Shown: one piece after another, positions 34,044 to 34,986 of the stretch
Numbering within the stretch: the stretch's first letter is position 1
How the letters are laid out: each line of letters starts with the position of its first letter
Position numbers and translations under genes: made by a program
The notes under the pieces: generated by a model
What the model was told of the DNA's origin: nothing
What the model saw: only the letters and a program-made list of their open reading frames with translations
Database searches by the model: none
Origin: a virus
Lineage: Duplodnaviria; Heunggongvirae; Uroviricota; Caudoviricetes
Virus record (IMG/VR): IMGVR_UViG_2541047702_000001
Length of the DNA: 36,638 bases
Strand: one strand, 5' to 3'

Positions 34044-34343
34044 GTGAGAAAGTTAAGCCGACTTGAAAAATATCACATGAATAAGGTTTCAATGCGCAGT
34101 CCGTCAAAGATTGTCGCCGTTACTCCTGCGGCGATAGAGATCGAAAAACGCGCGATTGAAAGAGAGAAAAAAGGGCAATTCCGAATTGCCGCCTACCTTT
34201 GGCTTCAGTGTATGGATGTTGCTTCTGGTGATGTTGAGCGTGCAAGGATCGCGGTTCGCAGGGACCAATGTATCACAAAAGGTAACGGCCTTCGCCGTGG
34301 CGACTATAGCGGCATAGGATGTTGTGGGGTGGTTTATGACTAA
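34044..34343 (+). CDS. PerC-family-like transcriptional activator (tentative)
   Basis: Segment FRIAAYLWLQCMDVASGDVERARIAVRRDQC resembles the PerC/Pch conserved core (recalled); start uncertain (GTG 34044, ATG 34077 or 34092). Confidence 0.4.
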   Translation: MRKLSRLEKYHMNKVSMRSPSKIVAVTPAAIEIEKRAIEREKKGQFRIAAYLWLQCMDVASGDVERARIAVRRDQCITKGNGLRRGDYSGIGCCGVVYD

Positions 34344-34986
34344 GAAATACACACTAATCTATGCAGATCCACCCTGGGTATACCGGGACAAAGCCGCAGA
34401 TGGTAATCGCGGTGCCGGTTTTAAATATCCGGTTATGAGTGTGCTGGATATCTGCCGCCTTCCTGTGTGGGATTTGGCCGATGAAAACTGTCTGTTGGCC
34501 ATGTGGTGGGTGCCAACACAACCACTCGAAGCACTAAAAGTTGTTGAAGCCTGGGGATTCCGTCTGATGACGATGAAGGGCTTCACGTGGATAAAATGTG
34601 GTAGTCGACAACCAGATAAACTTGTTATGGGTATGGGACACATGACTCGCGCCAATAGTGAAGATTGCCTGTTTGCGGTAAAGGGAAAACTACCTACGCG
34701 CATTAATGCAGGGATCGTTCAGTCATTTACCGCACCGCGGCTTGAGCATTCAAGAAAGCCAGATATCGTTCGTGAAAAACTTGTGCAATTATTAGGCGAT
34801 GTTTCTCGCATTGAACTGTTCGCCCGCCAGACGTCTCATGGCTTCGATGTTTGGGGTAATCAGTGCGAAGACCCGGCAGTGCAACTACACCCTGGATACG
34901 CGTTGGATATTGGCGGATTAACAAATGCATTCAGCAATGCTCCGCTGTCACCAACAGACAACCAGGGACGGGAGCGTGCTGCATGA
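34336..34986 (+). CDS. MT-A70-family DNA N6-adenine methyltransferase (orphan, no cognate endonuclease visible)
   Basis: ATG 34336; catalytic DPPW motif in LIYADPPWVY. Confidence 0.65.
   Translation: MTKKYTLIYADPPWVYRDKAADGNRGAGFKYPVMSVLDICRLPVWDLADENCLLAMWWVPTQPLEALKVVEAWGFRLMTMKGFTWIKCGSRQPDKLVMGMGHMTRANSEDCLFAVKGKLPTRINAGIVQSFTAPRLEHSRKPDIVREKLVQLLGDVSRIELFARQTSHGFDVWGNQCEDPAVQLHPGYALDIGGLTNAFSNAPLSPTDNQGRERAA

Follow-up and report, generated by a model that had tools for sequence, protein, structure and literature searches.

Small open reading frames (ORFs) that overlap the start of a modification gene control the timing and amount of a potentially toxic modifier in phage Mu, where com precedes mom, and in restriction-modification (R-M) systems, where the ORF encodes a controller (C) protein. 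Com is a zinc-finger translational activator, and the C proteins are helix-turn-helix (HTH) repressors or activators. In the Stx2a phage PA8, the purified methyltransferase M.ECPA8_3172P alone was non-specific on DNA and RNA, and the protein PNB-2 co-purified with it and altered its substrate. The reported in vivo target was 16S rRNA, the enzyme was constitutively expressed and had effects on spontaneous induction, and the proposed benefit was protection of the ribosome from Shiga toxin (Gong & Koudelka, bioRxiv 10.1101/2023.09.20.558713). Pch, a relative of the EPEC activator PerC, was described as having no homology to known DNA-binding proteins (PMC4764244). In published tests, members of the PerC family other than group-1 Pch did not activate LEE1, and one of them represses it (PMC6265319, PMC5931665, PMC11773190). 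The ANR proteins, such as Aar of EAEC, are described as acting by binding other regulators and H-NS (PMC5570504, PMC10148876).

Orthologues of the two genes studied here occupy the same position in phages phiV10 (gp34 and gp33) and epsilon15 (gp31 and gp29). They are annotated as a PerC-family activator and an N6-adenine methylase in phiV10, and as a 99-aa ORF and an adenine methylase identified by HHpred to METTL3 in epsilon15. A 35-aa ORF lies between the two genes in epsilon15, where a different small gene also replaces the DUF1382 gene. In the cryptic prophage CPS-53 of E. coli K-12 and its intact relatives, the stop of yfdN (PerC family) overlaps the start of yfdM. YfdM is a remnant of a PF05869 Dam enzyme (NPPY), whereas the enzyme described below is of the MT-A70 type; we had tried K-12 YfdM as an MT-A70-like protein and rejected it, as it is a Dam fragment with no BLASTP similarity to our enzyme. 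YfdN carries an N-terminal extension of approximately 90 residues, winged-helix-like by eye from its relatives only, and the yfdN-yfdM pair follows replication genes, whereas our pair follows RecT and AlpA.

We analyzed a 36,638-nucleotide stretch of viral DNA (hereafter the window), which by its sequence is a temperate prophage of the phiV10/epsilon15 type (genus Uetakevirus) adjoining guaA. The 1.65-kb stretch that holds the pair was 100% identical to E. coli GF4, in which guaA lies beyond the integrase gene. Identity to phiV10 DNA was 98.2% across the whole of this stretch, which was present, with the same annotation, in 561 of 5426 complete E. coli genomes. The gene pair itself is already known, as phiV10, epsilon15 and RefSeq genomes of E. 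coli by the hundred carry it under the same names. Both ORFs of the initial annotation were present at its coordinates and are listed with their surroundings in the table. No repeats were found in 33600-35300, and the sole Rfam match in the window was a tRNA located elsewhere than the gene pair.

Table. Features of the early-left operon and its surroundings in the window
Feature	Coordinates	Strand	Basis
Terminator-like hairpin after HTH regulator gene, upstream limit of the early-left operon	31353..31372	+	Consensus scan
Nearest upstream sigma70-like promoter match, TTGACA-17-AATTAT, 10/12	31424..31452	+	Consensus scan
AlpA-family small HTH protein, excisionase/regulator type, 82 aa	33686..33934	+	Phage_AlpA 24.2 bits (cut-off 21); PHROG 66; PGAP name
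38-aa membrane peptide ORF	33931..34047	+	PHROG 17484, E 4.7e-27; phiV10p35, epsilon15 gp32
PerC-domain protein, 99 aa, GTG start	34044..34343	+	Pfam, PHROG, alignments, model
Orphan MT-A70 (beta-class) adenine methyltransferase, 216 aa; probable ATG start at 34336	34336..34986	+	Pfam MT-A70, PDB relatives, PA8 gp5 identity
DPPW catalytic motif IV, residues 11-14 of the methyltransferase	34366..34377	+	Sequence; aligns with DPPW of solved MT-A70 proteins
DUF1382 protein, 64 aa	34983..35177	+	Pfam DUF1382 105 bits
P4-type tyrosine integrase, convergent with the operon	35181..36431	-	ORF call, Pfam, identical genome

The genes of the operon were arranged in the order RecE-like protein, RecT, AlpA, 38-aa peptide, PerC-domain protein, MT-A70 methyltransferase and DUF1382 protein. 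The pair was described beforehand as lying in an integrase-proximal accessory zone. Its position was borne out, as the pair stands at the distal end of the early-left operon, but the word accessory is doubtful because the pair is a conserved feature of the phiV10/epsilon15 phage group and not a strain-specific moron. A rho-independent terminator is annotated in phiV10 at the place equivalent to our hairpin, and we took the sigma70-like match downstream of it as a candidate promoter for the operon in whose distal end the gene pair lies. A sigma70 consensus scan found no promoter-like site on the + strand in 31452-36638 and none within 33600-35250. The TGA stop of the 38-aa peptide overlaps the GTG start of the PerC-like gene (GTGA), the methyltransferase gene begins within the PerC-like ORF, with an overlap of 8 nt, and the DUF1382 ATG overlaps the methyltransferase stop (ATGA). 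Since every junction overlaps, a single mRNA probably yields the five proteins from AlpA to DUF1382 through translational coupling.

The PerC-family membership proposed for the small protein was supported by a match to Pfam PerC (PF06069) above the gathering threshold (28.7 bits against 22.6; E 1.6e-6). The match was limited to residues 35-80, corresponding to positions 5-50 of the 90 in the model. In addition, the protein matched PHROG 868 (transcriptional activator) from end to end (E 3.6e-61), and its pairwise alignment with EPEC PerC showed 40% identity over 60 aa (E 9e-10). When it was aligned with PerC, YfdN and a diverse set of family members, it carried the residue of each of the eight invariant columns (E, R, A, A, W, R, R, C). 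Its version of the RRAA motif is FRIAA, with Ile in place of the second Arg, a residue that at least 90% of the aligned sequences conserve. The C-terminal tail was conserved and reads DYSGIGCCGVVYD. The NCBIfam ANR model (NF033650) matched residues 35-77 with 22.3 bits, below the cut-off of 32, and also matched PerC, YfdN, a Pch-like sequence and five other PerC-domain proteins, all below threshold. The same sub-threshold match in PerC, YfdN and the Pch-like sequence suggests that the ANR proteins, which are small and helical, share a core with the window protein, not that the latter is a member. We know of no ANR protein that is linked to a methyltransferase.

The start at 34044 that was first assigned to this gene was upheld by conservation of residues 1-16 across genera; Y10, H11 and R18 were nearly invariant among homologues. 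The codon homologous to GTG 34044 is ATG in the epsilon15, Tyrion, Citrobacter, Pseudocitrobacter, Superficieibacter and Erwinia loci. In contrast, the starts in PGAP (34092; 83 aa) and phiV10 RefSeq (34077; 88 aa) are later and lie at non-conserved methionines, whereas the window and epsilon15 proteins both have 99 aa. In annotation, the loci of the window and phiV10 differ in this start alone. We identify GTG 34044, which differs from the RefSeq starts, as the conserved start of this gene, and consider this new. RNA folding revealed no occluding structure around this codon (z -0.09) or at the junction of the PerC-like and methyltransferase genes (z -0.27). The pair resembles Mu com-mom and the C-protein systems in that a small ORF overlaps the start of a DNA-modification gene. 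Unlike com-mom, however, no RNA structure stands out at the junction in the window, and neither Com nor the C proteins have a sequence relationship to the window protein.

The structure of the small protein was predicted with a short N-terminal helix (6-13) and three core helices (28-42, 46-59 and 63-81), with a pLDDT of 74.5 for the AlphaFold model. With this model, Foldseek found nothing in the PDB below E 0.8 and no HTH match; the top matches were generic three-helix, MIT and TPR-like bundles. A sequence search of the PDB with the PerC-like protein also returned nothing significant. From the model, the fold can be described as helical and no further. The motif common to EPEC PerC and EHEC PchA/B/C, E..G.(W/Y/F)R.AA..W...D......ER......RR..C, is also present in the window protein, where it falls in the predicted helical core.

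The MT-A70/DPPW identity given to the second gene was confirmed by a match over the full model of Pfam PF05063 (80 bits, threshold 23.9; E 2.6e-22), in which residues 5-176 correspond to model positions 1-172 of 172, and by DPPW in the sequence. DPPW lies near the N-terminus, ahead of the cofactor-binding region, which is the beta order. Relatives with solved structures in the PDB were ciliate MT-A70 proteins (MTA1-type) and METTL3. The absence of a partner endonuclease likewise stood, as the neighbors encode the AlpA-like protein, the 38-aa membrane peptide, the PerC-like protein, the DUF1382 protein and the integrase. Among the five proteins encoded in 33686-35177, the methyltransferase alone was matched by PADLOC. 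Since no restriction endonuclease gene adjoins that of the methyltransferase, as it would in a type II R-M system, we regard the enzyme as an orphan. The PD-(D/E)XK protein encoded at 31937-32758 is no such endonuclease but the RecE-like partner of RecT. M.EcoGIX was rejected as a relative; it is plasmid-borne, single-strand-specific and from an unrelated context. It is plausible that the methyltransferase protects phage DNA from restriction, as the initial annotation proposed.

We compared the locus with that of PA8, whose enzyme (gp5) was 83% identical to the window enzyme (156/187 residues; E 4e-124). The PA8 gene is likewise integrase-proximal, a small ORF of the same strand lies upstream and overlaps its start, and it is followed by a DUF1382 gene (gp4; DUF1382 96.5 bits), as in the window. 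The upstream ORFs differ: that of PA8 encodes PNB-2 (143 aa, with a weak HTH match), whereas that of the window encodes the PerC-like protein. PNB-2 and the PerC-like protein gave no BLASTP alignment, and no PNB-2 homologue was found in the window by tblastn at E up to 10. DNA homology between the window and PA8 begins exactly at the methyltransferase ATG (window 34335), indicating a module boundary at this point.

PerC-domain loci were collected from IMG/VR with degenerate DNA patterns and a local HMM filter, using the first 120 pattern matches of each scan; the sample is dominated by enterobacterial prophages, and its loci are not independent. Among the matches listed, 184 distinct loci with a PerC-domain ORF grouped into 27 clusters at 60% identity, and a methyltransferase gene started within -80 to +150 nt of the PerC-domain stop at 68 of the 151 loci with enough flank. 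These 68 loci fell in 8 clusters, and no methyltransferase was nearby in 16 of the 27, again among the matches listed. The paired enzymes belonged to PF05869, PF02086 or PF05063. Clusters 2, 7 and 10 were each paired with two methyltransferase families, and at two loci (L167 and L170) a Dam gene stood behind a PerC-like gene with an unchanged C-terminal tail. Searches for related loci with the window family or YfdN returned near-identical loci only, and single distant PerC-domain proteins returned 0-1 locus each.

At all eight species-level genome loci, an adenine methyltransferase gene followed 0-2 genes after the PerC-like gene (6 MT-A70 and 2 PF05869 Dam). Same-position orthologues of the PerC-like gene were found in phages and prophages of Salmonella, Enterobacter, Klebsiella, Citrobacter and Erwinia, and the pair was kept in epsilon15 (gp31, gp30, gp29), Tyrion (gp32 to gp29) and Klebsiella phage phi13.3. 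Genes inserted between the two in relatives encode DUF1317, DndB-like, PD-(D/E)XK-like and winged HTH (wHTH) proteins, and several phage MT-A70 genes were preceded by other small ORFs, including the PNB-2 type and DUF4060. What appears to be new is not the pair but that, in phages, the gene directly after a PerC-domain gene often encodes an adenine methyltransferase, drawn from any of three Pfam families. The literature that we searched held no paper joining PerC, adenine, methyltransferase and phage, and this absence applies to that literature only.

We hypothesized that the end of the early-left operon encodes a low-specificity methyltransferase together with a PerC-domain companion that is intrinsic to the phage, an explanation to which, taken as a whole, we give an even chance. 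Upon induction or infection, the enzyme would methylate adenines of the phage DNA during replication, with little sequence preference, and perhaps those of RNA too, and the methylated progeny would escape restriction when they enter the next host. In this view, the PerC-domain protein would be the companion of the methyltransferase and would not activate virulence loci of the host. It might regulate the enzyme or act as a partner on the same nucleic acid; one possibility is that it relieves silencing by nucleoid proteins, an activity described for Pch and ANR proteins. PNB-2, encoded by an ORF overlapping the PA8 enzyme start, is a precedent for a functional upstream partner. The in vivo target reported for the homologue was 16S rRNA and not DNA (10.1101/2023.09.20.558713), which speaks against this explanation. 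We also put forward, with considerable reserve, that PerC-domain proteins were originally co-translated companions that direct or control the orphan adenine methyltransferases of phages; PerC and Pch would be stand-alone derivatives with a new C-terminal tail, and the 99-aa protein would play the role of PNB-2.

Alternatively, the two genes may be independent cargo in a recombination-prone slot at the operon end, the methyltransferase serving as an anti-restriction cassette and the PerC-domain protein as a separate small regulator or anti-silencing factor, so that their adjacency would reflect mosaic gene order and not cooperation. The exchange of methyltransferase families behind near-identical PerC-domain genes favors this view, as do the module boundary at the methyltransferase ATG, the inserts accepted between the genes and the many PerC-domain clusters without a methyltransferase. 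Three methyltransferase families behind closely related PerC-domain proteins also argue against a specific enzyme-subunit contact; this exchange is equally compatible with a slot in which recombination swaps methyltransferase cassettes. The protein database contains natural in-frame fusions of the two genes (P0003 and P0001), but we did not take them to show interaction, since one indel at the overlapping junction is enough to produce them. However, the two genes adjoin in two different operon contexts, one downstream of replication genes and the other, that of the window, downstream of RecT/AlpA, and they do so with both short and wHTH-fused PerC-domain architectures. Start/stop overlaps are the rule among the pairs, and the pairing frequency is far above the local background: at distances greater than 3 kb, 869 kb of the same loci contained, among the matches listed, 1 such methyltransferase gene. 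Independent cargo seems to us possible but rather unlikely.

We then considered whether the enzyme is mainly an RNA methyltransferase that modifies 16S rRNA and tunes translation and spontaneous induction in lysogens, instead of protecting DNA, and judged this improbable. The closeness to M.ECPA8_3172P, with the same DUF1382 gene downstream, is in its favor, together with the 16S rRNA methylation, constitutive expression and spontaneous-induction effects of that enzyme (10.1101/2023.09.20.558713) and the presence of METTL3 among the closest solved relatives. Nevertheless, the RNA-recognizing subunit PNB-2 has no homologue in the window, and the enzyme alone was non-specific according to the preprint. 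The proposed benefit is tied to Shiga toxin, whereas most of the window matches phages of the phiV10 type, which are non-Stx, and the data come from a single preprint.

Finally, the initial annotation saw in the small protein a Pch-like activator and a candidate for lysogenic conversion. The Pfam match above threshold and the identity to EPEC PerC over the core fit a protein that switches on LEE or other virulence loci of the host, and Pch genes are prophage-borne, group 1 activating ler (PMC6265319, PMC4764244). Yet the resemblance is confined to a core of approximately 45 residues. The Pfam match ends at model position 50, and the C-terminal half of PerC/Pch, with the ...MG[IL]... tail common to proteins of this type, is missing; the window protein has instead its own tail, DYSG..G.VYD, and 27 extra conserved N-terminal residues. 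No BLASTP alignment was obtained between the small protein and the Pch-like IMG/VR sequence, whose identity as group 1 is our own reading. No tool named this sequence, and we took it as group-1 Pch from its MG[IL]-type tail, contig-end position and length near 104 aa, the length implied by the 315-bp group-1 genes. The gene also sits inside a coupled early operon, overlapping both neighbors and without a promoter-like site, whereas LEE activators of the PerC/Pch type are stand-alone genes of prophage ends or virulence plasmids; in IMG/VR, those of the Pch type were located at the ends of prophages or contigs without a coupled neighbor. In addition, the small protein is conserved in phages of other enterobacterial genera, hosts that are not known to carry LEE. 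The published tests on LEE1 cited above, in which PerC-family proteins outside Pch group 1 were inactive or repressing, likewise speak against the activator. Because the likeness is limited to the core, the gene has no promoter-like site of its own and the protein is conserved across enterobacterial phages, it is a poor candidate for LEE conversion, and we regard a PerC/Pch-type activator here as very improbable.

These results suggest that the prophage label "PerC family transcriptional regulator" should not count as a virulence marker. Among phage MT-A70 enzymes, biochemistry has been reported only for that of PA8; the window enzyme is closely related to it but has a different upstream partner, and the two loci thereby provide a natural swap experiment. 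The recurrent coupled pairing with three methyltransferase families offers a testable lead on the role of the PerC domain in phages and also bears on the origin of the PerC/Pch virulence regulators.

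The five ORFs at 33686-35177 (+) of the window overlap at every junction. The initial annotation of a PerC-like gene and an MT-A70 methyltransferase gene at 34044-34986 was correct because the ORFs, the Pfam and PHROGs matches and DPPW fit; the start coordinate is also right. The 99-aa protein scored 28.7 bits against Pfam PerC (gathering score, 22.6), at residues 35-80 only (model positions 5-50 of 90). Against Pfam MT-A70 the enzyme scored 80 bits with the entire model covered, and its DPPW lies at residues 11-14 (nt 34366-34377). PHROGs assignments agreed with Pfam for these ORFs. 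The + strand promoter-like site closest to the 99-aa ORF in a sequence scan was at 31424-31452, past a terminator-like hairpin; the ORF has none of its own.

Features at the integrase end of the window, and inserts located between the two genes in related loci (L-numbers)
Feature	Location	Strand	Remark
AlpA-family gene	33686-33934	+	
Membrane peptide, 38 aa	33931-34047	+	
99-aa ORF	34044-34343	+	GTG start overlaps TGA stop of 38-aa ORF
Methyltransferase ORF	34336-34986	+	ATG 8 nt inside 99-aa ORF
64-aa ORF	34983-35177	+	ATGA overlap with methyltransferase stop; DUF1382 (Pfam)
P4-type integrase	35181-36431	-	Convergent on five-ORF run
Insert in L166	2718-4015		
Insert in L169	2754-3332		
Insert in L173	2819-3325		
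Insert in L175	2730-3133		

The gene pair is real, yet it has been annotated before. A 1.65-kb stretch was 100% identical to the E. coli GF4 chromosome, where the integrase abuts guaA, and 98.2% identical to phage phiV10. Of 5426 complete E. coli genomes, 561 carry it. Over its first 25 kb, the window matched phiV10-type podoviruses, and the two window genes are the same as gp34/gp33 of phiV10 and gp31/gp29 of epsilon15. PGAP had already named them 'PerC family transcriptional regulator' and 'MT-A70 family methyltransferase'. At the level of annotation, the interpretation is right. At the DUF1382 position, the epsilon15 gene (L174 4058-4240; 60 aa) is annotated 'serotype conversion: transacetylase repressor' and did not match Pfam; therefore, the last slot of the operon is variable among relatives. 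Elsewhere, at 21984-22060 (+), a phage-borne tRNA-Arg (anticodon TCT; Rfam, 73 bits; ARAGORN) separates the structural region from the early region. Two overlapping ORFs at 31937-33636 encode a PD-(D/E)XK protein (273 aa) and RecT (293 aa), as in GF4; the phiV10 RefSeq has a single 1761-nt RecE-RecT fusion gene there (phiV10p37).

The small gene starts at 34092 in PGAP (83 aa), at 34077 in the phiV10 RefSeq (88 aa) and at 34044 in the initial annotation (99 aa). When 18 homologues from several genera were aligned, the 16 residues ahead of the PGAP methionine proved conserved (Y10, H11 and R18 nearly invariant), and neither later methionine did. Where the window has GTG 34044, the epsilon15, Tyrion, Citrobacter, Pseudocitrobacter, Superficieibacter and Erwinia loci have ATG as the homologous codon, and a conserved purine-rich GAGRRG-type motif precedes it. 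The alignment thus supports the 99-aa form from GTG 34044, and the RefSeq annotations truncate the gene.

Pairing with an adenine methyltransferase gene recurs. In the K-12 cryptic prophage CPS-53, the stop of yfdN (PerC family, 36 bits) overlaps yfdM, which encodes what is left of a PF05869 Dam-type methyltransferase with no sequence relationship to MT-A70; IMG/VR relatives have a full 217-aa Dam after yfdN. In all eight species-level genome loci of the window's phage group, the PerC-like gene is followed, 0-2 genes later, by an adenine methyltransferase gene (six MT-A70, two PF05869 Dam). Inserts between the two genes encode DUF1317, DndB-like, PD-(D/E)XK-like and wHTH proteins; the PD-(D/E)XK-like one, a sub-threshold match immediately before the methyltransferase gene, could possibly form a complete R-M pair with it. 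The protein database also contains in-frame fusions of PerC-like with methyltransferase (P0003/P0001, 297/263 aa) or DUF1317 sequences (P0232, 119 aa), probably produced by indels where the genes overlap or by misassembly. P0247 (923 aa) has 11 tandem stretches fitting the PerC-like profile and repeat units that are nearly identical; it suggests an artefact, from repeats or assembly, or a repeat array read in the wrong frame.

For a wider sample, degenerate DNA patterns for E-x4-(W/Y)RRAA-x2-W were scanned over IMG/VR, and ORFs were retained if they reached 30 bits or more with an HMM built from 17 aligned PerC-domain sequences. Neighbours were searched with HMMs of three methyltransferase families only, and representatives were confirmed by Pfam. 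The sample, the first 120 pattern matches per scan, is rich in enterobacterial prophages, and its loci (at least 184 distinct, in 27 clusters at 60% identity) are not phylogenetically independent. Among the 151 sampled loci with enough flank, 68, from 8 clusters, had a methyltransferase start -80 to +150 nt from the PerC-domain stop. Three clusters instead contain loci with a methyltransferase within 2.5 kb (the best case for two), often behind a ParB-like gene. As background, 869 kb of the sampled loci lying over 3 kb away contained a single gene of these families. Paired enzymes were PF05869, PF02086 (D12 Dam) or PF05063; some also carry fused C5-methylase or PAPS-reductase-like domains. The linked clusters have a tail resembling that of the window protein, or a YfdN-like N-terminal extension that by eye looks winged-helix-like; clusters with a PerC/Pch-type tail lie at contig ends with no methyltransferase. 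Replication genes (HTH_36, Phg_2220_C, lambda P) precede most linked pairs, and RecT/AlpA precede the window pair; therefore, the pairing is found in two operon contexts. In the literature library searched, no paper was found that connects PerC with adenine methyltransferases. Several PerC-domain clusters (loci L187, L191, L212, L263 and others) have a ~440-aa ParB-HTH protein next, with an MT-A70 or D12 methyltransferase ~1.4 kb downstream; these may be equivalent to the phage loci with ParB-linked methyltransferases that PMC4738411 mentions.

Enzyme families differ behind closely related PerC-domain proteins (clusters 2, 7 and 10; L167 and L170), which argues against a specific protein-protein interface. 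This variation is compatible with a regulatory link, a shared substrate or a plain cassette-exchange slot, and other small overlapping ORFs precede other phage MT-A70 genes. That the two genes are independent cargo sharing a swap-prone slot, which the changing families would fit, is a rather unlikely but serious alternative.

The closest solved relatives of the enzyme were ciliate MT-A70 DNA methyltransferase subunits (E 4e-13) and METTL3; homologues in Enterobacterales number thousands. A tblastn search of phage genomes placed a gene for an 83-84% identical protein ~2-3 kb from the integrase end in over 100 Stx2a-converting phages. In one, PA8 (KP682374), it is the fifth CDS, with an overlapping 143-aa ORF before it and a DUF1382 gene after it; Gong & Koudelka describe the enzyme as gp5 (M.ECPA8_3172P) and the product of the 143-aa ORF as gp6 (PNB-2). 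According to their preprint, purified M.ECPA8_3172P has only non-specific activity on DNA or RNA and PNB-2 co-purifies with it; the holoenzyme prefers 16S rRNA, is constitutive in lysogens and affects spontaneous induction. For the closest studied relative, the partner is thus encoded by the overlapping upstream gene. PNB-2 is not PerC-like, and no homologue of it occurs anywhere in the window. PA8 DNA (L415) matched 34335-34867 at 78% identity, beginning exactly at the methyltransferase ATG, a sharp mosaic junction; separately, 26242-26989 was 92-97% identical to part of PA8 8000-9000. In HK639 (L418 1212-1640), HK639_37 is a clear PNB-2 homologue, and a 55-aa ORF separates it from the MT-A70 downstream, which is 45% identical; therefore, the PNB-2/MT-A70 pairing is conserved beyond Stx phages. 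The window enzyme is an orphan adenine methyltransferase, probably of low specificity; the reported preference of the PA8 holoenzyme notwithstanding, we consider an rRNA-directed enzyme improbable.

The initial annotation had also proposed lysogenic conversion through a Pch-like activator. The 99-aa protein has the core motif in common with EPEC PerC (40% over 60 aa) and diverse family members, including all eight invariant columns. The C-terminal half of PerC is absent, and unlike PerC/Pch the protein begins with 27 conserved residues of its own and ends in a DYSG..G.VYD tail. BLASTP gave no alignment with a Pch-like IMG/VR sequence, which we take to be a group-1 Pch by its tail, length and contig-end position; no tool named it. 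The NCBIfam ANR model matched the same core, below threshold, in the 99-aa protein, PerC, YfdN and this sequence. An AlphaFold model (pLDDT 74.5; helices 6-13, 28-42, 46-59 and 63-81) had no significant match in PDB. Phages and prophages from several genera, among them Salmonella, Enterobacter, Klebsiella, Citrobacter and Erwinia, have orthologues at this position. Pch reportedly disturbs H-NS nucleoprotein complexes and has no known DNA-binding domain (PMC4764244). LEE expression requires Pch group 1 only (PMC6265319, PMC5931665); in published work, PerC-like genes of phage-inducible chromosomal islands (PICIs) in EDL933 and CFT073 left LEE1 unaffected, and one PICI PerC-family protein, whose ANR similarity its authors remarked, repressed it (PMC11773190). 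On this sequence, context (including the lack of an own promoter-like site), distribution and LEE evidence, the lysogenic-conversion reading is weak and a Pch-like activator highly improbable.

The best reading, to which we give an even chance, is a phage-intrinsic, co-translated pair. The orphan low-specificity adenine methyltransferase would modify phage nucleic acid in lytic growth, and the PerC-domain protein would be its regulatory or functional companion.
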